From NCBI GenBank assembly GCA_000091205.1, contig AP006502.2: a DNA stretch of 64,000 nucleotides; one strand, written 5' to 3'. Below the pieces are notes generated by a model. The model did no database searches, had not been told where the DNA came from, and saw only the letters and a list, made by a program, of their open reading frames with translations. The stretch comes from Cyanidioschyzon merolae (taxonomy: Eukaryota). Made by a program: the position numbers and the translations under genes. Numbering within the stretch: position 1 is the stretch's first letter; each line of letters begins with the position of its first letter. Shown one piece after another: positions 100 through 64,000 of the stretch.

Positions 100-600
100 C
101 ACCAGCGCTAAAGCGACGCGACACAGCAACGCGGAAATCATCAGTGGAGCGAACAATGCCTCGCACCCATGGGCGGCAAATACAGACACTCACGCGCAGA
201 CGCTTCCCAGACTTTTTAGACCGGCAGTCCGGTATCGGCGGCAGCTCTTGCGTCTACAAGTTGAGCATCAGAGGCTGCACTACAAAGTCGGATCGCGCCT
301 GCTCCTCGGGTCTCGTCCTCAGCACCGCACATCGTATGATATTGGTGGCGGCGTTCAAGTCTCGGTTCACGAACTCCATGTCTGCATCGACGCTGGTTGA
401 ACGCACCATGGCGAGGAATCGTCGAACTCGTGCCCTCTGTGCCAATTGGTGCACTGTCAGCTCTGCATGCTTTTCTATCGCCGAAGCGCTGCGCGGCTTT
501 CGCTGCATGTCGTCCTTCTGAAACGTACACCCCAGGTCATCGCTTAATTTTTAAAATGCGCGCACCTGCTTATGCCCTTAGGTGAGGAGCCTCCCACTGG
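100..600 (-). mobile_element. Relic fragment (copy a) of a TnpB/Fanzor-like element, covering the RuvC-III region and 3-prime module; the window start may truncate it.
   Basis: The minus-strand ORF 254..508 encodes MEFVNRDLNAATNIIRCAVL, matching the TnpB/Cas12 RuvC-III signature D-x-N-A-A-x-N-I. Its DNA aligns with 37690-37960 (copy c), for example CGCGCAGACGCTTCCCA...TTTTTAGACCGG and CAGCACCGCACATCG...CGGTTCACGAACT. The frame is disrupted and no RuvC-I or RuvC-II lies upstream. Confidence 0.5.
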
Positions 601-15892: not shown

Positions 15893-16262
15893 CAAAGGAC
15901 CCGCGATCCCTAGAGGTGGCTATTGCCGTGTTGCACACTCCCTAGGCAAAGCTTGTCTGATCTGAATATATACGCAAAGGATCCGCGATCCTTAAGGGTG
16001 GCTATTGCCGTGTTGCACACTCCCTAGGCAAAGCTTGTCTGATCTGAATATATACGCAAAGGATCCGCGATCCCTAAAGGGTGGCTATTGTCGTGTTGCA
16101 CACTCCCTAGGCAAAGCTTGTCTGATCTGAATATATACGCAAAGGATCCGCGATCCCTAAAGGGTGGCTATTGCCGTGTTGCACACTCCCTAGGCAAAGC
16201 TTGTCTGATCTGAATATATACGCAAAGGATCCGCGATCCCTAAAGGTGGCCACTTTAGCGTC
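15893..16262. repeat. Minisatellite of about 4.4 copies of an 83-bp unit, each carrying AATATATACG, about 150 bp upstream of the POL5-like start codon.
   Basis: The unit caaaggatccgcgatccctaaagggtggctattgccgtgttgcacactccctaggcaaagcttgtctgatctgaatatatacg recurs at 15893, 15975, 16057, 16140 and 16223 with over 95% identity. Confidence 0.9.
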
Positions 16263-20124: not shown

Positions 20125-23100
20125 TTATGGTTGGAGAAGCTTGCGTAAGCGCTCCTTGTAGGCGTTGCATTCCATTTCCATTTCTGCGAGGCAGATAAGG
20201 AGCTCGTTGTGTTCTTCTCGAAGACGCCAAAGCTCCGCCTCCATGTCCGCAGCGCGCGGATCCACGTGGACTTGTGTGGCGTCCTGCTCTTGCTCCTGCG
20301 CTTTCACCACTGCCGCACCTGTTGCTGGTACTGCTGCTGATGCTGTTGCGAAAGCTGACGACGGCAACCAGGCGTGCTGCGAGCTGTCAGCACCGGATGC
20401 GTCCAGCTCGTTGACGTGCGTTGCTCGCCAGGGTTGCTGTGGTTGCGCCCGCTTGTCGTGGTGGTGCTGCTCGGCGAGTTGCTTGCGCAGCAACATGTTC
20501 TCATCGTGCACCATTTCGACTGCGCTGGCAAGTCGTGACTCGCGGGCAATGAGTTCCTCGATCTGTTTCTCTAGTTGCGCGATGAGGTCGCGCTGTGCAG
20601 CTGCACTGCTTGGCAACTCTGCCGCCGTCTCCATATGCTGGCTGTGGCTCCCTCTGGTATCGTCGGATGGATGCGCTGGCTCCAGTCGGGGCAGGTTCGT
20701 GTCGGTGAGCGCTTCTCGTGAAGATACCTGGTCGTCGCCGTTGTCGTCGTCGTCGTCGTCGTCGTCGTTGGGTGTCCCAGCAAGCACGCTGGCACGAGTT
20801 CCAGAGGCATTTGGATGCTGGGCGTGCTCCCATGCTGCCAAGCGTGCGCGTAGGGCGCTGATACAGGTCTGAAGACGAATGTTCTCTTGGCGAAGATCGC
20901 CGCTCGCCATGCGTTCTTTCACGAGAGAGCGCTGTAGCGCATCGACGGACGCTGGATCCGCTGCTGGGCCGTCCACATCATATGAAGCGCTGGAATCGTT
21001 TTCGGGACTTGCTCGGTACTGGGTTGTTTCTGGCGCTGATGCTTCGTCGAACGCGCGCTTGTGCGATGACGCAAGCGCAATCGTGCGCAGGTGTTCGATC
21101 TCTTCCTCGAGTTCCTGGAGGACTTGTTCATGGACCCGCATCATTTCACGCATACTGGCCTCGTGCCTAGATTCAAGTTCAGCTAACTGCCGTTCATAGG
21201 CATCGCGGACAAGTTGTACTTGATGGGTATGCTGCTCTCCAGCGAACGCTTTGTCAGCCCTGATCGCTGACTCGGCGTGATCATCATCATCATCATGATC
21301 GTCATCGCCATCGTTATCATCGGGGTCGTGCTCACCATGCATCGCTAGCACCGCAGGAACTGGCTGCGGTGAGCGCTCGTTGCGCCTCGCCTCCGAGTCT
21401 GCGACTTGTTCGGTACCCGTAGCACCAGCTGATAGGATGACAGCGCGGATTTGCGCCTGGAGGTTGTCAAACTCAAGTTCACATTCTTGCAATGTTGCCT
21501 GCTGATCAGTGAGCATATCAAGCTGCCGGTCGATTATGGCGAATTGCTTATCCCTCCAGAAGTGAACGGTCGACGCACATGCACTGACCTCGGATGCGGT
21601 CGCGTCTATCACTCCAGTGATCTGATCCGTAAGCGCTCGTCTCCATCGATGATGCTCCGCTTCGATCATATGGATGCGAGCACAGAGTGCTTCCTGTTGC
21701 TCCTCAGCGGTAGCCAGTCTCTGGTTGGTCTGGTGAAGCTCCGCTACGCACTCATCGTGCGCAAGCTGAGTCTCGGCGTGCTCCGCGAGTACTCGGTCCA
21801 GCTGCGATTGCAGTTCGTGGCTGATTTCCTCGTACTGCTTTTCCGCCGCCAGTGCTTCTTCACGCTCCAGGCCGAGGGCATTTTGCAAGTTCTGCACTTG
21901 ACTCTGTAGGTGCTGTACTTGGTCTTCTCGAGATGCAAGCGTTTCTTGCAAGAGTAAAACCTGAGCGCTAAGTTCCTCCAATTCAGCATCGCGCGTTTCG
22001 CTTTTGGATTCGAGCTCGCGATTTCTCGCTTCCAGTTCAGCAAGTTTCTCCCTATCCGCCTGGGCCTGTTCTAAAGAGATTTCCAACTCCCGTCGTTCAC
22101 TCTCAAGCTCTTCGCACCTTCGCGTGATCGTTCGCATGGAATCCTCCAGATCCTCGAGCCGGCGGCGGTCTCTGGTAGCCGCAGTCAACGCTTCTTCGTA
22201 TTCCTCGATGCGAGTCTGGTAGAGCTGCACCAGCTCCTCGAGTCTCTGTAGCTCTGCAGTTTGTCCGTCGCAGTCTGCATGCTGCTCTCTGAGCACAGTG
22301 AAGCTGTGGGAAACCTGCGCTAGATCTTCCTCCAGAGACCGGATACGCGAGTTCAACAACGCCTTCTCATGTACGTGAGCATCCAGTTCGGATTTCAGAT
22401 TTGTGCATGTTTCCTGAACACTTTCGAGACGACTTGCATGCTCCAGCAGAGAGTCTCGTTCGTCACAGACGTTTCGATATTGGGTTTCGAGTTCTGCGAG
22501 TTGCGTTTGCGCTGCTTGCTGGGCTGCTACCGCATGCCCGAGAGACGCGCATTCGCTCCGAAGCCTGTCTCGTTCGTCACAGACGTTTCGATATTGGGTT
22601 TCGAGTTCTGCGAGTTGCGTTTGCGCTGCTTGCTGGGCTGCTACCGCATGCCCGAGAGACGCGCATTCGCTCCGAAGCCTGTCTCGCTCGTCACAGACGC
22701 TTCGATACTGGGTTTCGAGTTCTGCGAGTTGCGTTTCAGACCGACGCAATTCCGCAAATGCATCCTCTAAACGCTGCCAGGATCCAACAGCATGCGAGAC
22801 AGGCCCTGCCTCGGCATACCCAGGCTTCAGATATCCAAACAGTTTCACCGCAGCGTCCTTGAGCGCACCCAGCGCAAGCCCTTTAATCAGTATCTCTTCC
22901 AGTATCAAAACCTCTACCCTGAACGCACCATAACCAGCAGCACGCTCCCGAGCGATTGCCTGATTCTTTCGCAAGGCATAAGCGAATAGTTCGGGAAGCG
23001 CCTCCAAGGGCGCAACACACGTCCCTACCTCTGGTGCAGTGCAGGCACCGACCGTCGTGCGCTGCAGCGTCATCTTCGCTTCTGCACTCCCGGACAGCAC

Positions 23101-37544: not shown

Positions 37545-38154
37545 CTATTCGGCTAAGACGATCGTACATACCGACTTGTCATTACCAGAGCGCATGCGGA
37601 GTTGCTTCCGTATCCGGGTATCAAAGCAGCCTGTTCTTTGCGTTAAGGGCTCGGACAATGCCCAGCGAAACATTGAATGTCCCACGACGGTAGAGTGTAT
37701 AAAGACACCCGCGCGCAGACGCTTCCCAACGTTTCTGGACCCACCGACTGCTATCGGTTTCAATTTCTCTTTGCAAACTTGGAGCTTGAGAGGATGTCCC
37801 GCAAAGTTGGCTGGTACCAGCTCCCCGGGTTTCGTTTTCAGCACCGCACATCGTCGGATGCCGTTGACGTGTCGGTTCACGAACTGCATGCGTTTATTGC
37901 ATCTGATGGAACTCACCATTGCAAGGATTCCTAGAACTAGCGCCCTCTGTGCCACTACAGCCTTGTCATCGTCCGGTCGGGCAAACACCTTTTCTTGTCT
38001 GTCTCTCATCGTCATCTTCTTCCTCGTCACGTGCTTATCTTCGCTCGATGGTCGGCGAGATGAGGATTTTTTCGTTTTTTCGGCAGCCGGTGGCGGCGGT
38101 CCTCATGGTTCCCAACTGTCATGTCCATACGTTTCCCACGTCTTTTATATTTGA
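37545..38154 (-). mobile_element. Relic fragment (copy c) of the TnpB/Fanzor-like element, with a degenerate RuvC-III region and 3-prime module, lying just 3-prime of the RPS5 gene.
   Basis: Minus ORF 37545..38030 contains CNKRMQFVNRHVNGIRRCAVLKTKP, a decayed version of VNRD-NAA-NI-RCAVL. Its DNA aligns to copy a (positions 150-420), and an MCGAENETRGAG peptide in frame 37621..37851 parallels MCGAEDETRGAG in copy a. No intact domains remain. Confidence 0.45.
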
Positions 38155-45493: not shown

Positions 45494-46651
45494 TTAAACT
45501 ACTGGAGCGGATGCTGCAAGGCATGCACGGTCACTCGATAGAGTATACGAATCGACCAGTATATCCGAGAAGAAGCATGGGCTATGGGACTCGGAAGTAG
45601 ATGGAATGATGGACGTCTTCCCGCGCATGGCCACACCAAACGCCGTTCGAAAGTCGAACGACGCCAACGGTGTACAGTAGTGGCGGGAAAACCGCGCCCT
45701 AGACAAAACGTCTCCAACTGACGTCCAGACGCCTCCCGCCTTTTTGGACCGGTCACCTACTACTGATTCCAATTCTTTCTCATATAAATCGACTTTGAGT
45801 GATTGTCCAATAAAGTTCTCTCTTGTCAGCTCTGGAGGTCTTTCCTCCAGCACCGCACATTTCCTCATATTGATTGCGGCATTAAAGTCTCGGTTCACGA
45901 GCTCCATCCGTTTCTTGCCATCACTGGTTGTACTTACTAATGCGAGTAGTCGACGAACTTTCGCCCTCCATTCCATTTGCTCTTCCTTCAGCGGTCCGTA
46001 CTTTGCTATTTCCTCAGGGCTCCTCTGGCACTTTTCCATCTCGGCCCTTTGAAGTGTGCACCCCAGTTCATGGTGTGTATACGATGTCCGAAACTCATCT
46101 ATTGGTATCGTAACAGAACGCCCTGCGCACTCCTTGTACACCCTCGTCGTTGGAGCTGGCGTAGTTCCTTTTTGTGTCTTCCAGCACCCTGCTCTGTACG
46201 CTAACACGAGCCTTTGAGTCTTGTCCTCTTTGAGGGCACTCAACTCATTGAAACAATTCGCGAATGCCCGCGGCTTCCCACAATACAAATTCATTCGTAA
46301 ACGTGCCCACCGGGGCTTGGTATACTCCTTCCACAGCGTATCCCAATGCGCCATGCGAACTTCCATGAATTTCCGAAAGGCTTCAAAGTCCGCTCCTCGG
46401 TTAGTCACGTCGCTCAAAGCTTCCAGGTGATCTTTCATTCCTGAATTCCACGTCTCAATTTTCTTTCTCGTATTCATGATTCCCGATTCTCGATAGTATC
46501 TCGCTCTCGAGAACCTCAAAAGACGCATGTGTTTCTGACGTAAGTTACCATCAGCACCATCTTCCGCACGCTTGGGTACAGCGATGGTTACGATATTCGT
46601 ATTCCCAGGGTCCGCGCCAACGACAAAGTCGTTATCTTGCACTTTCTGCAT
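45494..46651 (-). pseudogene. RuvC-domain portion of the copy-B TnpB/Fanzor-like gene; its ORF reads through the ancestral stop into the 3-prime module.
   Basis: Copy C terminates 9 codons after RCAVV (TAG at 60732-34), whereas copy B has CAG at the aligned position and continues more than 100 codons into sequence that is conserved non-coding in the other copies. Confidence 0.55.
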
Positions 46652-47130
46652 CGCAGGATCCGCCTTCTTGTTTTCTTAATGCTTCGTCGCGTCAACGACA
46701 AGGTCGTTATCTTGCACCTCCTGCATCACAGGATCCGCCGTCTTCTCATCTTCATCCTTCGTAATGTCAACAACAAGGTCGTTATTCTCTACCTCCTGAG
46801 TCGCAGGATCCTCTTCTTTGTTTTCTTCATGCTTCGCCGCGCCAATGATAAAGCCGTTATCCTGCACCTCCTGCGTCGCAGGATCCGCCGTCTTCTCATC
46901 TTCATCCTTCGTAATGTCAACAACAAGGTCGTTATTCTCTACCTCCTGAGTCGCAGGATCCTCTTCTTTGTTTTCTTCATGCTTCGCCGCGCCAATGATA
47001 AAGCCGTTATCCTGCACCTCCTGCGTCGCAGGATCCGCCGTCTTCTCATCTTCATCCTTCGTAATGTCAACGACAAAGTCGTTATTCTCTACCTCCTGAG
47101 TCGCAGGATCCTCCTCTTTGTTTTCTTCAT
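46620..47130. repeat. Perfect 150-bp tandem array (two 75-bp half-units; about 3.4 units) inside copy B. It encodes [25 protein letters not shown] / [25 protein letters not shown] and duplicates the segment just N-terminal to RuvC-I.
   Basis: tcttctcatcttcatccttcgtaatgtcaac recurs at exactly 46741, 46891 and 47041. The repeat peptide [17 protein letters not shown] parallels the native [20 protein letters not shown] that opens the RuvC-I block. Copy C has only one unit. Confidence 0.9.
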
Positions 47131-49822
47131 GCTTCGTCACGGGTGCAGCCGAGGGTGGAACTGGACGATCTTTCTTCAACCGCCGATAGTGTACACACAT
47201 GGCTACGCCATCGGTTTCGATCATCCCAGTGAATACCTTTTGTTTGCTGACTTTGAGACGTTTGAAATCGAAGATACTCTTCCAGTACGTCTCCCGGTTT
47301 TCACGGATGAAGTCCTCCCTGCTAACATTGAACCCCGGACTGATCTCCTTCATGATGCCGTAAAGGACGCCTGAATCGATACTCACAAAATACTACTTGA
47401 TGTTGCACAACGGAACCACGTTTAACTGCTTCCCCATTAGGAAAGCCTTCCGTCTCTCCCACTCTTCATTTGTCTCTTCACTCAGCTTCATCTCCGCCTT
47501 GCGTTCGAGTTCACGATTCAGAAACACAAAATAGCGCAGGATGAGGCGATAGTACCTTTCCTTATCTTTTTTTAACTCTGACACCTTTTCTGTTGGATTC
47601 GGTAGCCCCATGACTGCGCCGTGCTCTTGCATAGCCGCACGGATTACAGAAGCTTCATTCGTGCTCTCGTTTGACGCCTTCTTCTCGAAAAATTCGACCT
47701 CATCTTCATGCCTGCGATCTTTCGTGATGGCATCGATAATCGCCCATATCCCCTTGCGTGAGATTCCCGGGTACAGCGCAAACACGGCGCGTATCATGAA
47801 ACGTTCGAGGTTCATCGTCAAATGGTTCTTCAGGTTCGTCAGGTACTTGATGGCCCCGTATTCGTAAATATCCGCGTCACCTGTATACCGAGTACCATCG
47901 AAGCTGTAAAAGAGATGTTTTTCGTGCAGGACGTGCACCCGCTCATTTCCCCTCCGCGCTTCCGCTGTACCAATCGTCATGTGACGAATAAAGGTCTCGT
48001 CGGAAACTCGTTCGGAAGCTCGACTGTTTCCATGTGCGTCATTTCGCGATACATCTCCCCGCCAAATGCACTAGTCCTGACGACACCTTTATTATAGTCA
48101 TGGAGTTCGGCTCAACACGGTTTCGGATGGACTCTCGTAACTTTTTCTTGCACGGAACCTTGATCTGTCCAAGAAGACAGGCTTTCATAACCAGTTCGTT
48201 GTAGTGTGGTCTTTCTTGCAGCCATCGACGTAGGACCTCCCTCCTTTCGGTCCTTCTTCTCTTCCTTTTCTTCTGGACTCGGTACTGTTTTTTGTTTTTT
48301 CTGGCAGCCAGCGACACTTGGCCTCCAGGATCGTCGACTTGGTTTTTGATAACATTTCCTTTTTTATTTTTCTTGAAAAAGAGCGCTCTTTGAACGCTTC
48401 TCCTATAAACCGCGAAAAAGGACTTGAATACACTTATTTGAGGGTTGAAACACGATTCAACTGAAAACTGCAGTTTGCTACGACTTCAACGGAAATAGAA
48501 CTTTTACTTTACTGCTGGATCATAAAGGTTTGGATCGTGTCTCCCTTCAACGGCGACAAGCGCGTCATATCTCATGACTGCCAGATCTCCCAGGTGCGCG
48601 TCTCAACCGCGCTATTTAGAAAAAAAGGAAAGAGACTCACGATTCACGAGCAACGAGCTATCGATTTCTTTCCCCGTCTACATGAAACATTAAAAGGGGG
48701 AAATTTTTTCCGCATGTCCGAAAGTTTAACGTCTAGGCGGAAAGTCGCGCGGGCCGAACGAGTCTGCCAGGCTCGTGCTTCATGCCCCTCCCAGCGGCGG
48801 GTTCTTGAAAGAAACCTGTGCTACTCGTCCACAAAGCAATTCATTCTGGGACTAGGGACAGTTAAGCTGCATCTGGGCATCGCCCTGGTCGCAGTGGACT
48901 CCTAGGATATCGATTCGCGCTGTCGCAGGCAGTAGGTCTGCCAGCGTAGCTTGCAGGCTCCCAGAATGATCATGAACCTCGACCCTGATTCAGCCGTAGC
49001 ATTCCTCGAGTCGATGCGCTCTCTTGTATGGCATGTCGGTTCTCTCTGTCCATGCTGCGACCGCGCCGCCGCTATAGGCGCTATCGCGGACGCTCGCGAC
49101 GGGCAGTCGGCACACGGTCGAACTTGAAAATAATCGGTACCTCCGAGGGAACGTATGGGAAGCGGAACTTGCGAGGAGGGCGCGGAACGATGGAAACCCC
49201 ACAACGCGCGGTTACCGAGCACGCTCTCAGGGATTGCTGCTCTGTGGGTCAACGTTTCGTCCAACGAAAAGGAATCGAGTGTGTCCTTCACGCGCGCCGC
49301 TAGGCAGGTACACTCAACTCGTTCAGTGGTAAAGACGTTTTTCCGACGGTTCACTCGATATATCACAACGCATTGCGAAAATGAGTTGTCACTGACGTGT
49401 CCGTGGACCAGCCAGTTCATGTGCCGTATATGCGCTTTTTCTCAACAGATAGGTGAACGACCTTCCAGGTCCGTGTGGTGCTGTCGAAAGCGTTCCCGTC
49501 GAAACGGTACACATATGATCAAAGCGGGCCTGTTTGGAGGCATTCTAGATGCAGCTCTGGATATTGATCGTAGCTATGTAAATAGTATCCTTGCGAGAGA
49601 GCAGCCTGGCACCGCTGCCGCAACGGCAACCTTTGAATCTTGAACACTCATTCCAGTTTTAGATCAAATTTGACACCCGTCACTGGACGGCCATCGACGC
49701 CTGTCTCAGACGCTTCATCACCGCCGCCACCGACGCCGCTGGGTACCACCGAGCGCTGTACGCTTCAGCGCTCATCTGTGTCTACGACAAGGCGAGCTGC
49801 ACCGGCGCTCGGAACTCGTTCC

Positions 49823-50662: not shown

Positions 50663-52838
50663 AGTGAATTCGGGAACGAATTGGGCTCCATTTGTGTCCG
50701 GTCTTCATCTCGTGGTTACATAGAAACCCGCTGGACAGGGTCATCCAGAGCCGATGCACATCGAATTCAGTGGGCACGCTCTCCTAGTAGTACCGAGCGT
50801 CGTTGCTCTTCTCTGGGGAGGGATCGCTAGATGCCGCGTTTTCGCATACGACTCGGAGGGAGTGCATCGGCCGTGTGCAGCCACCAGACTGGAGCTTCAA
50901 TAACACATGGAAAGCGTTACAGTACCCGTTGTTGAAGCGTGACATGTCGCCACTGTGGCAAGCGCGCCGGCTGCTTTCACGCTTGAGGACGCCAGGCCTT
51001 TGCTACAGATGCGAACAGGTTCACGGACTGGAACAAGTCTCCGAGTTTCTGTTTAGTTTCCGTCGGAAAAGCTGTTCAAAGCAGCAGGAAAAGGCAGTAG
51101 AGAAGCGTGAGCCACGACAGCTTCAACAGTGGTCACCTCGTTCACAGCCTGTAGCAGCAATGATGAGCGCTAGCTGCGGCTGCAGTTCGAGCGACGCAAC
51201 GTACGTCGCTTACGGAAATGGAGCACATTTAGCAGAATCTCAGTTGTTGACGTTTCACTAAAAGATTTGGGTTGAACACTATCGCACAGAGTCGTCAGTC
51301 GATGTTTCTACGCATACGCACCCGATATTCTCCCGTTCAATGCAGTGCTGTATGGCGACCTATCGTCGCAACGAGGAAACGAGGTTTGTCCATCCAGCGC
51401 AGGCACGTGCGTTCCAGGCACGGGGCTAGGCTCGTCGCCGCGGCTTCTGTTGCTGCTTCTTTTGATGAAAACCCCCAATGACAACTGAGCAGCCTCGAGC
51501 TGATACCCCTGATACCAGACGGCAGAAAGCTAACACAGGCCGAAAATCAGAGTCGCTGGTGCTGAACTGGTCCAGCATGCGTCCGGATGAGCAGCTGGTG
51601 CTTCGGGACTGCGCACGACAGGCAGCTCTTCGAGGAACAGGGGCACTTGTCGGCGGCGCACTGCTCTCTAGTCTGGTGCTCTACGGTTTACCATAGCCGG
51701 CTCGTACTGGCTCCACACGCTTTTTCCAGGATAGTTGGCGTGCGCGCGTTCCAGCCTGGTTGCGGGTGCTCGCTATTGTCGCCACTGCTGGGGTGAGCGG
51801 CTACGCTGGAGCGCCGAGCACGGTGCCCAGCTGCTTGGAGCGTATCTTGCGACTTCCGAACTCACACCTGGCGGCGGAGGTGCGACTCAGTATCGAAGAC
51901 TGGCAGACGCACTGGTCGCAACGAGTGTTAGACTTGAAACCGCTGCAGCCGGCTGCCGAACCCGAGCAACACCTCGTACGGAGGGCTTCTGCGGAGACTG
52001 CACCCAGAGACAGCGGTCAAGCGCCCGTCTCATGCCGTACCAGGGGAACGGCACCCAGAGACAGCGGTGCTGCGCTTCCGCGAAAGCACGTCATTCGACT
52101 CTGGAACCGTTTTTTTCATCAGCGGCTACCGTAGCCGCATTTGCCGCATCAGGAATTATCGACTGCATCTCTCAATAGCAGAGAAAGCGCGTCGCAATTT
52201 GATCAGGAGCGTACGAGGTGCCTGTCGTCACGGTAACGAATCCGGTACGATGTGGGGTTCAAAAGCGAAACGTTGGTGCTCCAGCCGCTCGCGACGGTAG
52301 CCTGCAGAAAAGTGGAGAATTCGCGTTATGTGAAGTTGTACGCACGTTCGGCATCTCGATCCAGCAGGTATCGTTGCGCATTCATGAAAGCTTTGAGCTG
52401 GTCCTTGACGGTTGCACCGTCCCGCAGGAAAACCAAGACATGCTTTGTTGAAGGCTAAGCGTAGATAATGTAACGCTCATTCCGATGCAGTGCCGCACAG
52501 TGGAGAAAGTGTCGAGCGTGTTTGACTCTTTGCAGACTCGCTCCGAAAACGATTTCAGGACGATAGTCCCGCCAAGGTGGAATCATAAAGCGCTCATTTG
52601 CACAGATTTCTCGTGGAGTTGGGAGTGTCAGTTGCCTGGACGCCTGGCGAGGCGTCTGCGCGCGTGCTGAGACGAAGCGCACATAAGAAGAACGCTGGCC
52701 TGTGTGTCTGCTTTTTCTCAAAATGACTATTGTTTAGGCATAGCCGCTGCGCGTCTACGTCAGTCGTGTGCAGATGAGGTTGCCACAAGGGCCTATGGAT
52801 TGTCGCTTTATAGAATTTGTGTTGGACCGGGTTTGCGA

Positions 52839-54950
52839 ATGATGCGGCAAAACGACGGCGTAGGCTACCGACTGGGAGTATGGCCCTGGAATCGACGCCC
52901 AGCGGACAGCGAACTCCTGGAGCCGAAGTGCCGCTCGCCACGGTTGCTGTTCGGGATCGGTGCGGTGCTCGGAAAGCCGGGCGCTTACTATGCCATGCAA
53001 CGTATACGCGGTGCTCGTAGATCTCACCAGGCGCTATGTTCCGTCTATTCTCGGCGTTTTGTTGCAAGTCTGTCGGAGTCCTGGGCTGAAGCACATACAA
53101 CAGACGCCGCAGCTGAAGCGCTCGTGCAGGAGGGTGTGCTGACGCGCGGCTCGCGTGAGTACCGTCTGTTCCACGGACTCTCAGCGACGCGGGCCGAAAA
53201 AGTCCTTTATGCTCTGCGTAACCGAACGGATTGCGTCGCGGTTGTCCTCGACGGGGTTCACGGTGTCCATAACCTGGCTGCAGTCTGCCGGTCCTGCGAT
53301 GCCTTTGGGGTCCAGAACGTGCACTTTATTCCCCCGGATCGGTATGCGCTTCATTCAGAGACAGGTTCAGAGTCAGAAACAGGGCCATATGCGACGAGCG
53401 CCACTGCCAAGGCTCATTATCTGGGCCAGTTCCTCAAGTCGGCTGCATGCGATACCGCTGGGGGTGCCCACAAGTGGCTGAGCCTGAAGACCCACGGAAG
53501 CGTTCCTGAGCTCGTAAGTAGACTCCGAGCGCTGGACTATCGTATTTTCGTATCCAGCGTCTATGCGGATCGATGCATTTCTCTGTATGATTTGAACTTT
53601 GTGGATAGTAGGTATCAGAAATGTGCGTTTGTGTTTGGAAATGAGAATTCAGGGGTCTCCGAACAGCTGCAGGAGGCTGCGGACAGTCTGTTTACGATCC
53701 CAATGTACGGATTTGTCGAGTCGCTGAACGTGTCCGTATCAGTGGCAACGACACTCTCCTACGTAACACTTCAGCTTCGCAAGCAACTCGGTTCCGACTT
53801 TCCACTGCCAGTCGCGAGAAAACGTGAAGTACCGTATTTTTGGCTGCATGGTGGCTCGTTTGGTGAGCTCGAGCGCACGGCGACTCGCGGACAGGCGTCG
53901 AATGTGCGGGGTCTCTTCAAGGAAGGGCGTAGTGCTTTCTCGGTTTTTGGGCGTCGCTTCGAGCAAGAGCTCCGGAAGAAGGGTCTATTTGGGCTCGAAC
54001 CGAGCGGCCCCAACGCTGTGCTTGCCCCAGTGACTCGACAGCAGTACGCCAGACGAATACAGAACTACCTCATTCGTCGAAAGGGTGGCGTTTTTGGCGA
54101 AACCGATCCCCTGCGACGACGACGCCATCACGCGGAAACCTTTATAGGCCTTCTCGCTTGGATGAGCATTTGTGTGCGGAATGTCGAGTTTGCACATGCG
54201 AGCAGTCTACTACCCGTCTACAGAGCCGTATTCAGCAAGGTCGACGAGGTGATGGAGACTGACGCTTCCGCTGCTGCTGCGCTGCGTGTCGCTGCGCAGC
54301 CGTGGAGCATTCTGGACGACACCGGTGCCAAGCACTGCGTCAAGCTGGTCTGGGAAGTCCTGGAAGCGGAGTCAGCTACCTCTGGAATCGATGTCGCTGG
54401 CCTGCGCACGGCGGTGATGAAGCTGAATCCCCGCATTGTTGCGACTCGCCTGCTGTGTGACGTTCTGCAGATTGACATGCACACTGACCTGAAAGCGACC
54501 GAGTGGGCTGCAGCAACCTTTGGTCCAGCGGCTATAGAGGAAATGCAGAGCTTACCACAAACAGAATGGTACCATATCCAGACTGCAGTGCGTCTACTGC
54601 ACGCATGCGACGTTCGACGGCTATTCTACCTCAGCTGCGACAGCGAATCAGTTTCACGAACAGACAGGAAAACCTTCTTGCATCATCCAAGACATAGCCT
54701 GTATGAATGCTACTTTTGGGACGTGATGCGTTCAGCAGGGGCGGATGCCCCTGCAGCTGGCGACTGTGATACGCAGAACGTACCTGTACTCAGTTTTAAT
54801 TCGTATGCACCTGACAGCATGGAGCTCACAGCGCTTGCGAATAGCTCTGGCGCCTCCGCTGAAGCTCATGAAGAGCTGCGCCCGCATTTGCATTTAGAAC
54901 GAGCAGTCCAGGCGATTGCATTCGATTTCCAGCGTTTGCGCAACGTATGA
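52839..54950 (+). CDS. SpoU/TrmH-family (SPOUT) RNA 2-prime-O-ribose methyltransferase with a C-terminal extension of about 400 aa with no family I could place.
   Basis: The SpoU core reads VVLDGVHGVHNLAAVCRSCDAFGVQNVHFI...RIFVSSVYADRCISLYDLNF...CAFVFGNENSGVSEQLQEAADSLFTIPMYGFVESLNVSVSVATTLSYV. The start is uncertain: the track start at 52704 is GTG, and the first ATG pair lies near 52839. Confidence 0.7.
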   Translation: MMRQNDGVGYRLGVWPWNRRPADSELLEPKCRSPRLLFGIGAVLGKPGAYYAMQRIRGARRSHQALCSVYSRRFVASLSESWAEAHTTDAAAEALVQEGVLTRGSREYRLFHGLSATRAEKVLYALRNRTDCVAVVLDGVHGVHNLAAVCRSCDAFGVQNVHFIPPDRYALHSETGSESETGPYATSATAKAHYLGQFLKSAACDTAGGAHKWLSLKTHGSVPELVSRLRALDYRIFVSSVYADRCISLYDLNFVDSRYQKCAFVFGNENSGVSEQLQEAADSLFTIPMYGFVESLNVSVSVATTLSYVTLQLRKQLGSDFPLPVARKREVPYFWLHGGSFGELERTATRGQASNVRGLFKEGRSAFSVFGRRFEQELRKKGLFGLEPSGPNAVLAPVTRQQYARRIQNYLIRRKGGVFGETDPLRRRRHHAETFIGLLAWMSICVRNVEFAHASSLLPVYRAVFSKVDEVMETDASAAAALRVAAQPWSILDDTGAKHCVKLVWEVLEAESATSGIDVAGLRTAVMKLNPRIVATRLLCDVLQIDMHTDLKATEWAAATFGPAAIEEMQSLPQTEWYHIQTAVRLLHACDVRRLFYLSCDSESVSRTDRKTFLHHPRHSLYECYFWDVMRSAGADAPAAGDCDTQNVPVLSFNSYAPDSMELTALANSSGASAEAHEELRPHLHLERAVQAIAFDFQRLRNV

Positions 54951-55383
54951 CGTCACATGCGCAAATATGACGCTCTCGAGGGCGACGTTCGCGAGTCGAC
55001 ATCCGAAGCAGGATACGGCGCCAATGTCCTGTCTCTGTGCACCAGCCGGATAATCACTGTGTCGATGAAACCTCTTTTCCAAGAGTGCATCGCATTCCAG
55101 GATTTGTTCCATGTGGAAGCGCCTGTCACAGGAGCTAGGCGACAGCATCGATTACCGGCGACATTCGCACACCTGGAGACATGTGCTTAGAGCCAAGCGT
55201 CCTGTACGATAAGCACTTCGAGACACGACATATATAGAGCCAGCATCAGGGATGGACAGAGATGTTCTCAATGCCACATCAGCGTTCTGCGGCACGGATC
55301 GCGCTACATAGGTATCATAGAGAACTGCGGCGCCGTGGAATGGCGTGCTGTGGATCTCGCGGCACTGCATGGTATGCCTGCTG

Positions 55384-56358
55384 CTATCCTGGCACATCAT
55401 CTACAGATTCTGATTCTTCTGTTGCCACAAGTTCGCTGATGAAATGATCCATCTCCTGACAGGCGTAGGCGCTATCTCTTATGCACTGCTGCGCGGCGTC
55501 GAGTACCACGTCGGGCTCCACGGGCAAGGAGCCGCGCTTCCATATCGCTCGCAGGTGCTGCGCGCTGTCACTGGCCACAGAAAGGAAACAGCCCGCCAGC
55601 GTCTCCTCCTCAGCGCACGGATCGATTATAAACCACCGCGGGGCGACCAAAGTCACCTGATCATGCTCTGTGCGCGAGTCGCGTACCAGAGGCGGAATAA
55701 AAGCCCCACTAGCGCTCAGCGGAGCGTTCGAGGCATTCAGGAGAGCGCAGTACTCTGCCCGGTCATCCAGTTCCCAGCTTCCACCGCTTTCACTGTCCTG
55801 CCAATACACGGACGGGACAACGGTTGTTGCCAGTGCTGCCCTCACAGCGTAGGTCACGGCATCGAGAATGTTACCCCCCGAGGCCCCGAGCACCAGTACG
55901 TCCACGTACACGTCCCAGCAGCACACCCGGAGCGTACCCGGATCCGAAGCTAGCCGCTGTTCCCTGCAGAAGAGGTCTGCTAAAAACTCAGGAGAAGCTG
56001 CGTAGGCAGTATCTAGAAACGAGACGAGCTCTGCCTCAAGCACCTCAGTGGAGCGTCCTTGAAACTCGGGACTTGCGACTCCGCAGAACTCCACAGAAAA
56101 CGCGATCGAGCCACGTTTGGCGTCATCTTCCGCATGAGCTGGCAAATTGTATTGCCTCAGCTCCAGGTTTATACCGACGAGTACGTCGTTAGTCCGACCG
56201 ACGAACACTCGACTGGAGCCCGCTGTGGAGGGCAGCACATCAACAGCAACGCTCACAGAGCGCGATCGAAGCGCACTGCGTCCGTCAACTCTTAGACCAT
56301 GCTCCTTGAACAACCATATAAGACTTTTCTTCTCAGTTCTAGACAGTTCGGTCGGCAT
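55384..56358 (-). CDS. Exosome complex RNase-PH-like subunit (RRP43/EXOSC8-like; RRP42 not excluded).
   Basis: MPTELSRTEKKSLIWLFKEHGLRVDGRSALRSRSVSVAVDVLPSTAGSSRVFVGRTNDVLVGINLEL...CCWDVYVDVLVLGASGGNILDAVTYAVRAALATTVVP...FIIDPCAEEETLAGCFLSVA follows the EXOSC8 pattern [24 protein letters not shown]...IVDPTGEEE. The ATG at 56356-56358 was verified. Confidence 0.7.
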   Translation of the reverse strand: MPTELSRTEKKSLIWLFKEHGLRVDGRSALRSRSVSVAVDVLPSTAGSSRVFVGRTNDVLVGINLELRQYNLPAHAEDDAKRGSIAFSVEFCGVASPEFQGRSTEVLEAELVSFLDTAYAASPEFLADLFCREQRLASDPGTLRVCCWDVYVDVLVLGASGGNILDAVTYAVRAALATTVVPSVYWQDSESGGSWELDDRAEYCALLNASNAPLSASGAFIPPLVRDSRTEHDQVTLVAPRWFIIDPCAEEETLAGCFLSVASDSAQHLRAIWKRGSLPVEPDVVLDAAQQCIRDSAYACQEMDHFISELVATEESESVDDVPG

Positions 56359-58957
56359 CGCTGTGGCATCTTAGAGAGGTCGGAGAGCGCAGCCGTTTCA
56401 AGGCTTCGGAGAGAGAAGGCTGCGCGCACAGGTGGCCCTGGAAAACGCTGCGAACTCGAGTGTCTTATTTCCAGGTTGGACTGCATAGCAACAATTGTAA
56501 TCATACGGCTCAAAGGAAGAAAGAGAAATTGTAGTGTGGTCTCCGCTAAATCCCCAAGAAAGGAAAACTTGAGCGGGTCGCCTGTTTAGAGTGATGCTCG
56601 GCTGTGGAGCGTTCATAGCGCAGGTGGCTCCAGCCAGGCTTTCCTGGTGCTGCAAGGCGCCGCGTTTTTATGCTACTGGCCTCTCAACGATAGCAAATTG
56701 TTGAAGAGAGCTGGGGTACGAATAGTGATGGCACACGATATGAGAAAAAGTGTGTGATACAACCGTCGCGGAATTTTTGGCGCTATGCCGTACCTACTAC
56801 TACCGGCTCGTTCCAAGAGACAGCTACTAAGCCGATATTAGTCCCGTAATGGTATATGCGGATGCATATTATAACTTACATGTTTGCACGCGGGGCGCGC
56901 CGTCGCAGGAGCGTCTTGGCGTGCTCGAGGTATGCTCCCGCCCCAGAGGCAAGCGATCGGGAGCTTGTGGTAGGCAGGATGCGGAGAGGACGAATATCGT
57001 GCACTTTGTGTAATACAAGCTCGACTACACACGTCTGGGTAGACATAATTCAGGAACGTGCCGTACGCGCGAAGGGGACGCTCAGTGCCCACTGACGTGC
57101 GTAGCGGGCTTTTGCACAGGCGCGACGCAGCAGAGACCGAGGCGCCTCCTTTGGACCGCACTTTCAGAAGATTCTTCATGGACCAGTATCTGGTGAGCGG
57201 ACCCATAATGCAGTCCTCGTGGTGTCTGAGAGGTTTAGTGACACGGTACTGGCCGCTGCGGCCAAACCGCTATCCTCAGAGCTATGGGTTGGCTTTCCTG
57301 GTGCCTGACATGTGGATTGCGCATAATCACGAGTCTCGCCCTCAGTTGTAGCATGCAATCGAAGAAAGAATCCTCTTCGTCACCGCTCGAGTTGATTCTT
57401 TCCAAGGCGAGCGGCATTGATGCGCACCGCGTAATCGCCAGCCACGTTGTTTTCGATTGGCAGCTTCGACCCACCACGTGAGCGTTCTTCGTAGGTATCT
57501 TGGAAAGACGCATCGGAATACACGCTTCATACGGGCAGTACGAGCCTCGTCTCCTTGACCTCGCGTCAGGCCTTGATTCGGATGGAGCGTCGGTTTAATC
57601 CGATGACGGATAATTTCTGAGGCATGAGTGCCTTGCAGTTTCGAGCTGGAAAGCAGGCTCAGCGTGGACAAAATGAGCGTATCAACACTATCTAGAGGAG
57701 AATGTGACAAAGGATTTTACACGGAAACAAGTTGAGATCACATAGAAAGAGTCTTCTACCTGAAAACGATAAAATGTACTTCCGAGGTGTCCCCCGCCGG
57801 ACTGTCGGTGGCGGCCAGCCCGTGCATGATCGGAAAAACAAATCGGACTCGAAGATAAAGTAAACCGTGGCGGATGCAGTACCCCTGGTATTTGGTGGGA
57901 TCGTCCATCTGTAGTGGAAATTCTCGCAAAAGCGATTCGTCGAACGCGGTGCAAACCGGCCGAGCACTACACGTCCGTCTAAACGTTTTACTCGCAGTGC
58001 CTAGCACCGCTTGTTGAGGGCTCGATGCCTGTATGCAGGCTTTCGCGCGGAATACTAGTTGTGGTTTGCAACAGGGATGCTTCAGAGCCTTGCCCGCATC
58101 CGCTTCTTGTCGACGAAAGGAACGTCAACGGAGAATATTTATACTGGAATACGGAGACCTCAGCAAATTGATTTCGTAGAAAGATGCAGTCGCGGCCCGT
58201 TTTTCGCCACGGTTCGAGATCACTTTGCACATCTAACTGAAATGCGGAAAGAGACAGGAAAATGCATGTCTAGTCGGGTAATGATACACTGCGAGCGATT
58301 TGACGTTCCCACCATCATCTCATCTAATATTGGTATAGGTTGGGCCTCATTTTCTTACTCACTCGCGTCGCAGATCGCGAAGGCCAAGTCCGTGCACGTC
58401 AGGATTGCATCGCATCTTCGCATTTGGAGGCGTTATGCTTTCATTATGCACACATGGACGCGGCACATAGTATGCGACGACGCTGTCTGTACACTCGAAG
58501 TACCTGAATGCTGTCGCTTGGGCTGGTTGATGATCTGACGAGATGCCAGTTGCAGCATCCAGGGCGAGAAGCATTTCTCGAGGACTTATAGACCTATCTC
58601 GCCTCCCATGCCTGTTAAAGTATCCGAGAGGAGCATATCGGCGCGTCGGCGGTTAATAGACGCACGAAATCTACTTACCAGATTCCGCTCTACCCAGAAT
58701 CTCTCAGGGTAAGAGTTCAATACAGTCCTGCGTCTGGCCGGACAAGCGCTGTCGGTGTGCTTACGGTGCGCGCCGCGAACACGTACTGCTCTGGATTCGG
58801 AAAGCAACTCTGTCTTGAGGAGAGAGCGCTGGAACGCGCGTCGGTAACTAGGCTACCGTATAGGTCGAACGTTTAAGCGGTAAAAGCCTTTTGTGCTCGT
58901 GTTTGTGACTCGCTCAGCGTCTAAACAGGCTTTACGCTCGGTTGCGAGGTTCTTGCT

Positions 58958-59944
58958 ATGTTGCCGAGCACTTTTGGGTGTGTGACTCGTCCACCGAAAG
59001 TCTTAGCACTAGTACTAGTTCTAGTTTTCCTCGTGTGGACGTACTTTTCTGCCAGCTTCCTATGTTCGAGCGGTTTCTGGGCTTTCTCCTCGCGCCTTAG
59101 CGCTGGAAGTAGCGACAAGCACGTTCTTTCTGCTGGTTTATGCAGATCGACGCTACTTGACACCGTTGAGAATATCAGTCGGAGTCACGTCGAACAAGCT
59201 CAGGGGTCGTCGTACCCATACCTCTTTCCGCCAATTATTCACCAGATTTGGCTGGGCAACCGTCCTTTCCCGAGTAGCTTCTCACGCAGTCAGGAGAGTT
59301 TCCGGACCAAAAATCCAGATATGTACTATGCGCTCTGGCGTGATAATGATATTGCGTGTTTAATAAGGCGATTCTATCCTGTTTTGGCTCCGGTGTATGC
59401 GAAGATTACCCGGGTAGCGACCACTTCAGATCTCGCGCGATACCTGGTACTCTATGTTTTCGGAGGTTTCTACTCAGATACGGATACGGTTTGTTTGCAG
59501 CCGATCCGGAAATGGCCCATGCTCGAAGGAACGCAAGCTATGGTCGGTCTAGAAGCGGAATTCAGCCATGTACCCAATTGGCAAGACATGATTGTCGTCA
59601 GGCAGATTCAGGTATCCGTATGGACATTGGCCTCTACACCGCTTCATCCACTGTTTGGTTCCGCGATTCACGGTATTTTCGTGAACTGTACACGTTTGTC
59701 TAGGGAGAAGCTCGAAGGAATGGATGTTATGGAAGTCGCAGGCCCAGGGTATTTCACTGATACTGTGTTCCATTATATGCACGCTTTTGGTGCTGGGTAC
59801 GCGAATCTTAGCGGTTTGTCGAGACCCACTCTGTTCGGGGATCTGCTGGTTCAGCCTCTGCATGTTTTTCGCTGGGAGGGTCGCGGCCCCGAAGAGGAGG
59901 CCTGTATCCAACACTTATTCGGTCAGTCTTGGCGCTGGCGGTGA
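58958..59944 (+). CDS. GT32-family glycosyltransferase (Och1/Gly_transf_sug type, DXD motif), a type II membrane protein.
   Basis: An N-terminal signal anchor (VLALVLVLVFLVWTYF) is followed by PIIHQIWLGNRPFP...YYALWRDNDIACLIRRFYPVLAPVYAKITRVATTSDLARYLVLYVFGGFYSDTDTVCLQPI, matching the alpha-1,6-mannosyltransferase/GT32 sugar-binding region with DTD as the DXD motif. The ATG at 58958 was verified. Confidence 0.7.
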   Translation: MLPSTFGCVTRPPKVLALVLVLVFLVWTYFSASFLCSSGFWAFSSRLSAGSSDKHVLSAGLCRSTLLDTVENISRSHVEQAQGSSYPYLFPPIIHQIWLGNRPFPSSFSRSQESFRTKNPDMYYALWRDNDIACLIRRFYPVLAPVYAKITRVATTSDLARYLVLYVFGGFYSDTDTVCLQPIRKWPMLEGTQAMVGLEAEFSHVPNWQDMIVVRQIQVSVWTLASTPLHPLFGSAIHGIFVNCTRLSREKLEGMDVMEVAGPGYFTDTVFHYMHAFGAGYANLSGLSRPTLFGDLLVQPLHVFRWEGRGPEEEACIQHLFGQSWRWR

Positions 59945-60479
59945 CCGCCGCCGCCTCAGTGGCAAGAAATCAACGTCATAATGGTGCTTTTGGCTACGAG
60001 GGGAGATCGAATGTGATAAACGCCGGATTTCTGAAGGCGAAGTCATCATGGAGTACCTGACTGAATGCTTTTAACGCTTCGCAATTTGAGATTGCTATAC
60101 TATATACTGGACGGCAGCAGTTCCTTCATTTTTATTAGACTCCAGCCTGCGTACGGAAGAGATAGCGTTTCAGCATGCTCACTCTGAAGACTCGAATCAG
60201 AAGACGTTCGCAATCTTCGTAATGCGTCAAGGGCGACTTGCCCGATGCAGAGCACCATCTCCATGTTTTGAACGGCATGGTCATCTTCGTGCCTTTGTTG
60301 GTACACTTTTGCCTCCGAGTCAAAGGATGTGTGTTAGAATCTTCGCTTACTGTTGTTCATGTAGAAATGGTCGAACTAAGCGTATGCGATGACGTAAATC
60401 GTCCTGTAACAGAGATGTGACATCCCTGCGGCGAGCAAATACCCGTGGTCTCTATCTTTCCGAGCTTTCGGAAAAAATT

Positions 60480-62940
60480 GTTCGGGGTGATTGTTTCCGA
60501 ATTGAGGGTTGCGATTTTTATGACGACGACGCCAGCGACAGCAAATGTCTTCCAAAGAAAACGTTGCTGCCAGCGGCGCACAGTAGTGGCGAGTGACCCG
60601 CCCTAGACAAGACGTCTCTAGCTGATGTGCAGACGCCTCCCGGTCTTAATGGACCGGCCACGTACTACGGCTTCCAATTTCTTCTCATATTGATCTACTC
60701 TGCAGGATTGTCAAACAAAGTTCCCTCTTGTCTACCCAGGAGGTCTCGGCTCCACCACCGCACATCTCCGTATATTGATAGCGGCATTCAAGTCTCGATC
60801 CACGAATTCCATACATTTTTTGCCGTCGTTGGTTGAACGTACTAATGCAACTAGTCCTCGAACGTTCGCCCTCCTTTCCATACGCTCCTCCGTCAGCGTT
60901 CTGTACATTTTGACATCCTCGGGACTCCTATGGCACTTTTCCATCTCGAATCTCTGGAGAGTACACACCAGCTCATAGTGTGTATACGATGTTCGGAACT
61001 CATATACAGGTATCGTAACGAGACGCCGTGCGCACTGCTTGTCCACCCTCGTCGTTGGAGCTGGCGTAGTTCCTTTCTTCGACGCTCATCGCCCTGCTCC
61101 GTATGCTACTCTGAGCCTTTGACTTTCATCCTCCTTCAGGGTACTCAACTCATTGAAACAATTCGCGAACGCTCGCTGCTTCCCACAATACGAATTCATA
61201 TGCAGACGAGCCAACCGGGGATTCGTATACTCCTCCCACAGTACATCCCAATGAGCAATGCGAACTTCCATAAATTTCCGAAAAGATTTAAAGTCTGCTC
61301 CTCAGACGGTCACCTCGCCCAAAGCTTCCACGAGATCCTTCATTCCTGTGTACCAAGTCTCGATATTCTTCCCCGCATTCGTTATACGAGATTTTCGATA
61401 GTATGTCGCTCGCGAGAACCTCAAAAGACGCGTATATTTCTGGTGCAAGTTGCCGTTGGAGCAATCTTCCGCATGCTTGGGTACAGCGATGGTTATGATA
61501 TTCGTGTTCTAGGAGTTACTACCAACGACAAAGACGTTCACGTGGGGATTACACGTCCCCTGGCCGTTCTACTTCTTTCCGTGCATCGGTATGGGCGATA
61601 ACGAAGACGGGATAGGACGAAGTACATGCAACCGCTAATAATGTACACATCTGTATACGCCATCGCTATCGATGGTCCCCGTGAGTACTTTTTTTGACCG
61701 GTTTGGGGCGTTTGGAATCGAAATAGTTCTCCCAGCAGGTGTTCCGGTCTTCGCCGGTTACCTCTTTGTTGCTTCCATCGAGCTCAGGACAGATCTCTAT
61801 CATGAAGGCAGAGAGAACTCTGGGGTCGATATTCACAAAACATGACTTGAACTCGCATAACCGGCCGACAATGAAACGCTTCTGGAGAAGACTTCAATGT
61901 CGTTTCTTCCGTCCGTGATTTTTGCCACACTCAAATCCATATCGGCCTCGCGTTCGGGTTCTCGGTCCAAAAAAATGAAGTACGGCAGGATAAAAGGGAT
62001 AAATCTCTCTTCGTCTGCCTTTGATCATACCTGACAGTTTCTCCCTTGAGATGACAAGCCCCGAGACTGAACGAAGTTCTAAACTAGCGGCGCGGATAGC
62101 AGAAGCAGAATTCGTCGACTTGCATGATGTGCTCTTGTCGACGAATATGATCTCCTGTTCATGCTAGCGAGCGTTCTTGAGAATATCGATGATTGGCCGC
62201 ATCCCTTCGCGAAAAAGGCTCGCGTACAGCACAAAGCGGGCGCCTATCGTGAAAAAGACGAAAGATAAGATTTTTTGGTTCCTCGCATTCGTGAGGCAAC
62301 TCAATGCCCTGTATTCGTATCTTTTTACGTCACACCGATGTCCAGCACCATTGACGCGGTAATTGTCGTAAATTGTGAGGGGGGCATCAGCCAGCTCATT
62401 GCTCTTTGATGCTTCCCCATTGCGAGGACTCAGGTGGTTGAAGAAAGTCTTTTTGAAAAATAATTCCGGAAATATCACTTTTGCGATATGCGTTACGTCG
62501 TGATGCAGCTCGATCTGCAAATGCGTCAGTCCAAAAGAAAAGTTACGACCAGACCTGGAGTGCGAATCTACGCGGTCTCTGATAGCGTCTAGGAGCATTC
62601 AGTCGTACGGATAATTGATATGCTGGAGACGACAGGATCACACAACCATATCGTCGTACGGACATCACTCTTGCAGCCTTCGTGGTAGCGCCTCCACATC
62701 TAACTTCTTCTTTTTTCCCTACTCCTCGGAAATAGCTACTACGTCTCGTTTTTTTTCCAATATTCGGCATCCCCGGTCATCCACAACACAACACGTCCAG
62801 TTCCATAAGTGAAAGATGTTTTGGGAGAAAAACTCATCGGACGCTTGTGCGTAGAGCGGCGAATATCGGTTGAATACATTTACTTGAAGATTGAAATACC
62901 ATTGAAGCCAAAACAATACTTTGCTAGGATCCGATCGCAA
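60480..62940 (-). mobile_element. Degenerate TnpB/Fanzor-like element, copy C (subtelomeric), homologous to copy B along its length but fragmented by frameshifts and carrying a single repeat unit.
   Basis: ORF 60732..61046 reads EFRTSYTHYELVCTLQRFEMEKCHRSPED...MEFVDRDLNAAINIRRCAVVEPRPPG. ORF 61086..61271 (MEVRIAHWDVLWEEYTNPRLARLHMNSYCGKQRAFANCFNELSTLKED) matches the copy-B peptide MEVRMAHWDTLWKEYTKPRWARLRMNLYCGKPRAFANCFNELSALKED. ORF 62164..62598 matches the copy-B N-terminal segment. DNA homology with copy B runs from about 60540 to 62935. Confidence 0.55.
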
Positions 62941-63883
62941 GTACAAGAGGCCCCGATAAAGCAGTCGCTCAAGAAGAGGTCATTACCGCGTTTCTATTGA
63001 TCGGCGAGGCGCACGTCGGGTGACGAGACGGCCAGAATTCGCGATGCGTTACTATGGCACACGACATAGAAAATGCCAACTAGTAAATGATATACACAAA
63101 CGGGATAGCAAGTAATATCGCCACCAACCTGAAACCTTAAAAGGAAGAAGTTTTTGCGTATGGCCACACTGTTAGATTAAGCGGAAGGTCTGCGAGCCGC
63201 GAAACCCAACCGGCCAGTCCCCCGTGTGACCCTTCAGTGGCGGGTGATGCGCCGCACCTAACCACCCCAACCGAACGCATTTGATTGTGGAATCATGAGC
63301 GGGTATGCTGCATCAGAATCTCACTTTGGGCAAGGCGGACTTCCAATACAAAACTCCGCGCTATACCAGGCAGAAGAGCTGGAATTAGAGCTTGGAGGCT
63401 TCCAGAAATATAAATAGCACTGATTCCGTGTTGCATGAAACAAGCATCAACCGACGCGCTCAGTAGTATGTGAAAGCTACTGTGCTCCCCAAGAGCATCA
63501 GCACCAGCGATGGAGAAACTTCGGAGGGTGCAGACGGCAGGCATCCGGCGCAGAATAAAAGCGTGAAACGACCAGCAAAGCCGAGAGTAAGTAAAAGCGA
63601 TGCAATGCACAGAGATTGTTCAGCACGATAAAGGATTTTACGAACCAAAAAGACGAAGCGGCGATCTCAGCCATCTGATCAGTGGAAAAATTCTGCAAAC
63701 CAGTAAAAGCAAAACGTCCGAAGTAAATTCCCGATGAATTTGGTATATAATCTATGTCGCGGTAACAGATGCGAAAAAGCCCAGATCGTGCCGCGAGAAG
63801 TGATACACTTGTGGGAAATGAAATAATACACGTCGCTATCAAAGATGCTTTCGCACTAAGATCATCAAACCTATGTGAAACTG

Positions 63884-64000
63884 GGGGAACGGGCGGAGCG
63901 GGGGGAACGGAGGGAACGGGGGGAACGGAGGGAACGGGGGGAACGGGGGGAACGGGAACGGAGGGAACGGGGGAATGGAAGGAATGGGGGGAATGGGGGG
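63884..64000 (+). repeat. Telomere-like G-strand repeat array at the window end: irregular GGGGGAACG / GGAGGGAACG units grading into AATGGGGGG.
   Basis: gggggaacgggcggagcggggggaacggagggaacggggggaacgg...gggggaatggaaggaatggggggaatgggggg runs to the last base, with the G-rich strand 5-prime to 3-prime toward the end. AATGGGGGG is the telomere unit I recall for cyanidiophycean red algae. Confidence 0.6.

Follow-up and report, generated by a model that had tools for sequence, protein, structure and literature searches.

On chromosome 20 of Cyanidioschyzon merolae, AACGG-type variant repeats probably form the inner edge of the right telomere

At the proximal side of human telomeres, the variant repeats TTGGGG, TGAGGG and TCAGGG are reportedly present, and the proximal repeats of Arabidopsis telomeres are said to be degenerate. 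Closer to the locus studied here, the telomeric unit is A2TG6 in Cyanidioschyzon and Cyanidiococcus yangmingshanensis and A2TG7 in Cyanidium caldarium, and the unrelated Galdieria unit is derived from TTAGGG and written as T2AG3T3A, also as TTATT(T)AGGG or CCCTAA(A)TAAA (Cho 2023, PMC9812998; Plant Cell 2026, PMC13353863). The canonical unit has been tested by CD (Cho 2023, PMC9812998). In C. merolae, the repeat AATGGGGGG is found at all 40 chromosome ends, and telomeres of 400-700 bp were measured by a terminal-restriction-fragment Southern blot (Nozaki 2007, PMC1955436). The same work named two candidate telomerase RNAs (CMM123T and CMP131T), both with a CCCCCCAUU template, and a TERT candidate, CMD110C (Nozaki 2007, PMC1955436). 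H3K27me3 marks 36 of the 40 C. merolae ends, and chromosome 20's right end (20R) is absent from the four listed exceptions.

The window analyzed here, a stretch of 64,000 nucleotides, ends in a G-rich tandem array. This array is already known: it is the published C. merolae telomere (AATGGGGGG)n (Matsuzaki 2004; Nozaki 2007, PMC1955436), with the same organism, end (20R), unit, orientation and position. It has ordinary anatomy, and our main claim holds no new biology. The papers describe the canonical unit only, and the searchable C. merolae telomere texts and supplements make no mention of the block of 11 AACGG-type units with which the 20R array begins. This end-specific degenerate block at the base of 20R is undescribed but unsurprising. 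As in human and Arabidopsis telomeres, the degenerate units of 20R lie only at the centromere-proximal edge, contiguous and in register with the canonical repeats, and the block, confined to one end and one allele, carries duplications within the array. Unlike the zones in those organisms, the 20R block is very short (~95 bp), has one dominant variant type and comes from one sampled end only. By analogy, it would belong with the variant-repeat zones known from the base of telomeres in human and Arabidopsis. Like the canonical C. merolae unit, those of the sister genera are built as A2-T-Gn and carry T at position 3, whereas the C-type unit of 20R is the canonical unit of none of them. Interstitial telomeric sequences also consist of degenerate telomere-like units, but they have unique sequence on both sides, and at 20R nothing comes after the array.

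The window covers the final 64 kb of chromosome 20 of C. merolae 10D and stops at the deposited right terminus 20R, since proteins of the chromosome 20 record and the published 20R primer both match it exactly. Four of the window's ORFs match C. merolae 10D proteins exactly and over their full length (Table 1), and BAM83530 is the last annotated protein of this chromosome of 1,621,617 bp (Nozaki 2007 Table 1, PMC1955436), 4 kb upstream of the array. The primer is 915-1, the right-end primer of chromosome 20 (Nozaki 2007 Additional file 2, PMC1955436). C. merolae ends were obtained from PFGE-isolated chromosomes by nested PCR with an end-specific and a telomere-specific primer, followed by cloning; the 3' part of the telomere-specific primer is the 12-nt ATTCCCCCCATT, whose reverse complement is AATGGGGGGAAT (Nozaki 2007 Additional file 1, PMC1955436). 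The record stops after about two canonical units because this primer anneals at the first canonical repeats, and at none of the C. merolae ends did sequencing reach beyond 2.5 repeats (Nozaki 2007, PMC1955436). Owing to the telomere-primer PCR, the last 9-12 nt of the window are indistinguishable from primer sequence and may be primer-derived, and the last 9-12 nt of most other 10D chromosome ends in the assembly may be primer too, as the same method was used. The real 20R chromosome runs on for several hundred bp of repeats (~0.4-0.7 kb) beyond the record, which under-represents the 20R telomere by this length.

An initial annotation, made from the letters alone, had placed the array at a chromosome end of a Cyanidioschyzon-like red-algal nuclear genome. 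The chromosome end is confirmed by the exact 20R primer match and by four of four orthologous contigs that stop inside the array (see below), its physical proof being the depositors' PCR on PFGE-isolated chromosomes, and the genome, by its exact proteins and the same primer, is that of C. merolae 10D itself. The annotation had also named the final unit as the telomere motif of Cyanidioschyzon and Galdieria. This attribution was right for Cyanidioschyzon, where AATGGGGGG is the documented motif at all 40 ends and not a different one, and wrong for Galdieria, whose repeat is TTATT(T)AGGG or T2AG3T3A.

Table 1. Features of the 64,000-nt window, with coordinates counted from its first base
Feature	Coordinates	Strand	Basis or remark
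Degenerate fragment of element ORF	125-538	-	Sequence comparison
Degenerate fragment of element ORF	37590-37946	-	Sequence comparison
BAM83523	39372-40712		Exact full-length protein match
BAM83526	43290-45206		Exact full-length protein match
Intact element ORF, 385 aa	45494-46651	-	Internal copy
BAM83529	55384-56358		Exact full-length protein match
BAM83530	58958-59944		Exact full-length protein match
Subtelomeric copy (~3.3 kb) of the ~3-kb interspersed CMe-1A / 'WSV486-like' element, putatively Fanzor1	60540-63878	-	5' end abuts telomere
Pseudogene of element ORF in the terminal copy	~60639-61556	-	68 % identical to intact copy, with stops
Site of published 20R primer 915-1 (TCAGAATCTCACTTTGGGCAAGG)	63313-63335	+	Single exact match; 665 nt from end, pointing outward
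Conserved telomere-junction motif AAAGATGCTTTCGCACTAAGATCAT	63841-63865	+	MAFFT alignment of 10 chromosome ends
Three innermost, most degenerate units AACTGGGGG, AACGGGCGG, AGCGGGGGG	63879-63905	+	Array start, bordering on unique subtelomeric sequence
C-type variant block: AACGGAGGG / AACGGGGGG, truncated AACGGG and AACGGGGG	63906-63973	+	Unit reading
Transitional unit AATGGAAGG, T-type yet degenerate	63974-63982	+	Unit reading
Two canonical units AATGGGGGG AATGGGGGG, presumed start of the telomerase-made tract	63983-64000	+	Exact match; Nozaki 2007

By direct reading, the 122 terminal bases (63879-64000, + strand) hold 14 G-rich units head-to-tail. For this interval, Tandem Repeats Finder gives a period of 9, 14.0 copies, 80 % matches and the consensus AACGGGGGG. 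Units 1-7 read AACTGGGGG AACGGGCGG AGCGGGGGG AACGGAGGG AACGGGGGG AACGGAGGG AACGGGGGG, and units 8-14 read AACGGGGGG AACGGG AACGGAGGG AACGGGGG AATGGAAGG AATGGGGGG AATGGGGGG, which brings the reading to the window end. Every unit lies on the + strand, with the G-rich strand reading 5' to 3' up to the last base, as the initial annotation had stated. That annotation had the array end correctly at 64000 and its start at 63884, 5 nt later than the true start, and it described units of 9-10 bp; the units are in fact 6-9 nt long and none has 10 nt. Its description of proximal C-for-T variants grading into the T-type repeat holds: the 11 proximal units carry C (or GC) where the canonical unit has T, and only the last three units of the array are T-type. 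The changes in the proximal units are T to C at unit position 3, together with G to A or C substitutions and truncations. The units of the block, which is ~95 bp long, are in register with the canonical array and differ by 1-2 changes each, with matches to AAYGGGGGGAAYGG (up to 2 mismatches) at 9-nt steps. The degeneracy of the block rises toward the centromere, as expected for age.

The array is far from a chance assembly of G-rich words. Against expectations from shuffles of the 64-kb window, AATGGGGGG occurs 2 times (0.16 expected), AACGGGGGG 3 times (0.15 expected), GGGGGAACG 5 times (0.32 expected) and AAYGGGGGGAAYGG with up to 2 mismatches 11 times (0.72 expected). Exact and near-exact searches on both strands for T-type units, C-type units and the junction 9-mer found no telomere-like units in the remaining 63.9 kb.

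The same end was recovered from the environment. An exact-protein look-up among metagenome contigs, from assemblies made without a telomere primer, found four shotgun contigs from four samples (L001-L004) whose identity to the window is 99.64-99.75 % across 11.4 kb. All four have the array junction as in 10D, followed by ACTGGGGG AACGGGCGG AACGGGGG AACGGAGGG AACGGGGG and further units, which in L002 and L003 include AAACGGGCGG AACAGGGG AACGGAGGG AACGGGG. The innermost units are common to 10D and these relatives, and the more distal units differ. G-runs are G6 in 10D versus G5 in the relatives, a discrepancy that could stem in part from sequencing errors on one side or the other. Since primer-free assemblies from four samples have AACGG-type units at the same junction, the C-type block is genomic and inherited and not a PCR or Sanger artefact, and the base of the 20R telomere is stable enough for sharing between strains.

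The more distal part of the block differs between 10D and the relatives. In 10D it holds a two-unit duplication, seen as an exact 30-bp direct repeat with an offset of 18 bp (63899-63946), and in L002 and L003 it has a 35-bp period from a four-unit duplication, with 39 of 42 positions matching. The 18-bp-offset repeat and the 35-bp period both reflect growth by multi-unit duplication, and the block is strain-polymorphic, evolving as minisatellites do. All four contigs end inside the array, at the equivalents of 63922-63956, so that none of the four reads through from the block into canonical repeats (the furthest ends at the 63956 equivalent). Neither the window nor the four contigs have unique sequence distal to the array; a continuation into unique sequence, the finding that would have spoken against a terminal position, is seen in none of these four independent assemblies. 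Contigs that stop inside a repeat are usual assembler behaviour and are only supportive as evidence for a chromosome end. Genomes 99.6-99.8 % identical to 10D occur in at least six metagenome samples (L001-L012 compared with window positions 52330-63956). One contig, L011, is only 98.25 % identical to the window and diverges ~80 nt before the array.

We inspected other C. merolae-type ends to see how general the block is. Metagenome contigs were scanned for AAYGGGGGGAAYGGGGGG; the matches listed were mostly chance ones inside unrelated bacterial or other contigs (e.g. L083, L133 and L014), and only contigs with the array at the contig end and the G strand outward were kept. We excluded L121 and L111, whose terminal C-type 18-mers stand in unrelated sequence. 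At least nine contigs terminate in (AATGGGGGG)n, its G strand pointing outward (L112, L098, L058, L018, L114, L030, L048, L129 and L061), a check on other contig ends that the initial annotation had called for, and these nine have no telomere-like units elsewhere along the contig. Published 10D end primers lie on at least seven of the nine with 0-1 mismatch, all telomere-ward. The matches are exact for the primers of 4L (L030), 13L (L061) and 9L/19L/20L (L098 and L018), and they have one mismatch each for those of 15R (L129), 3R (L058), 4R and 2R/18L (both L112) and 16R (L114).

None of these nine end contigs among the matches listed has a C-type block; each has 0-3 degenerate units and then canonical repeats. 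When the terminal 330 nt of 10 ends are aligned with MAFFT, six ends are homologous to 20R up to the junction motif and then carry AATGGGGGG where 20R starts its C-type block. At the seven homologous ends, the first telomere unit follows 6-22 nt after the junction motif, whose form shared among ends is roughly ACAGATGCNTTCGCRCTNRGATCAT. A diverged upstream copy of the motif is present at ~63765-63800. From this alignment, the C-type block appears to be the positional equivalent of the innermost telomere and peculiar to 20R, a specificity judged on the nine end contigs of environmental relatives among the matches listed. Being peculiar to one end, the block is unlikely to be a general property of the telomerase product.

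The sequence that the array adjoins is itself repetitive. The terminal element copy (Table 1) has 70-75 % identity over ~3.2 kb, in the same orientation, to the ends of L058, L018, L114, L098, L129 and L061, and its homology begins at one common boundary in terminal and internal copies. Between ends, homology starts exactly where the element has its boundary opposite the 5' end. At no fewer than six distinct C. merolae-type ends the element stands against the telomere with its 5' end outward, at the same distance and in the same orientation. The 16L primer matches an element copy at 63272-63293 and the 16R primer another at 45742-45763, each with 2 mismatches and telomere-ward in direction, and these near-matches inside element copies suggest that the 16L and 16R ends also carry the element. 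Two descriptions in the literature must both be of this family: a 3.2-kb element present in 253 copies, its ORF weakly resembling WSV486 (Nozaki 2007, PMC1955436), and ~150 copies of the ~3-kb Fanzor1 element CMe-1A (Bao & Jurka 2013). The element was called randomly distributed, and 20R, 13L and 15R were given as ends without homology to other ends (Nozaki 2007, PMC1955436). For 20R this statement needs qualifying, as the terminal 3.3 kb is a repeat element common to many ends. The G+C content is 0.49-0.51 in 58001-64000 and 0.55-0.59 over most of the window, and the lower stretch coincides with the gene-free repeat element.

The intact 385-aa ORF reads D14, 174 residues, T189 S190, two residues, H193 H194 C198 C208, 45 residues, R254 D255. 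The Fanzor/TnpB motif is D-X(125,275)-[TS][TS]-X-X-[C4 zinc finger]-X(5,50)-RD (Bao & Jurka 2013); the spacing and catalytic residues of the ORF fit it, and the zinc finger is HHCC rather than C4. Searches of the element ORF in Pfam and NCBIfam, by phmmer against PDB and with a 6-sequence profile against PDB gave no significant match, and the protein collection has no annotated C. merolae entry for the 385-aa ORF. Motif spacing and literature together suggest a Fanzor1 identity of the element. A tandem repeat with a 75/150-bp unit (~7 or 3.2 copies, 46613-47138) lies directly beside this intact Fanzor-like ORF.

We consider that the array is very probably the inner edge of the 20R telomere, with 11 proximal units that are degenerate, non-renewed repeats in which a T-to-C unit was amplified. 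The last two to three units would be the beginning of the canonical (AATGGGGGG)n tract, which TERT would maintain with its CCCCCCAUU RNA template. The 11 proximal units would be old repeats in a zone that is no longer shortened and re-synthesized. A mutated T-to-C unit would have become fixed in this zone along with the G-to-A/C changes and truncations, and would then have spread by multi-unit slippage or unequal exchange into the end-specific variant block. The variant-to-canonical gradient, which the initial annotation regarded as informative about telomere maintenance, is real and tells less than hoped, because the record is cut after about two canonical units and the block is peculiar to one end. 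A different origin of the variant units would be the telomerase itself, the block being a fossil or by-product of a past or alternative RNA template (CCCCCCGUU) or an occasional AACGGGGGG product of a paralogue RNA. Eleven consecutive units with C (or GC) at the T position and the existence of two candidate telomerase RNA genes (Nozaki 2007, PMC1955436) would suit such an origin. However, both candidate RNAs have the CCCCCCAUU template, the sister genera Cyanidiococcus and Cyanidium also have T, C-type units are found at none of nine other C. merolae-type ends among the matches listed, and GGAGGG, GGGCGG, truncated units and multi-unit duplications are typical of local decay and slippage, which makes a telomerase product very improbable. 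Also very improbable is an origin of the block in a G-rich minisatellite that already lay at the 5' end of the element and at which a broken or new end was healed by de novo telomere addition. The block does follow directly on the 5' end of a repeat element found at many ends, and G-rich sequences are good telomerase substrates. Its units, however, share the 9-nt period and the register of the canonical repeat at 1-2 changes' distance, at six other ends the homologous elements lack a minisatellite and pass into canonical repeats at just the position of the block, and no C-type unit occurs elsewhere in the window, internal element copies included.

Technical explanations fare worse. Errors of PCR, cloning or Sanger sequencing in a G-rich repeat, or mispriming by the telomere primer, might be suspected, as the end was cloned after nested PCR with a telomere primer of 12 nt, and G-runs are error-prone. 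Such errors would not change T into C in 11 consecutive units, and the AACGG-type units stand at the same junction in four primer-free shotgun assemblies from different samples, so an artefact is hardly credible. The window alone cannot show where the source record ends, and the array might in principle be an interstitial telomere-like sequence with the record continuing past the window. Against this stand the documented 20R primer and method, with at most 2.5 repeats sequenced at any end, the last annotated protein (BAM83530) 4 kb upstream, and the four of four orthologous contigs that stop in the array; we regard an interstitial array as next to impossible. A further proposal concerns how the end arose: the 20R array might be a scar of chromosome-end making, with the AACGG block as an old healed tract at a CMe-1A-bearing end. 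The CMe-1A pattern would fit a telomere-targeted insertion, or element-associated breaks healed by telomerase, and could also come from subtelomeric exchange; what is observed is the association alone; we hold the scar proposal to be doubtful.

As a degenerate inner telomere edge, the ~95-bp AACGG-type block would offer a heritable, strain-polymorphic marker of 20R, which could serve single-telomere length assays and strain typing. Two further tandem repeats occur in the window, one of an 83-bp unit in 4.3 copies (15893-16250) and one of a 114-bp unit in 2.5 copies (22453-22736) inside an ORF of 2454 aa.
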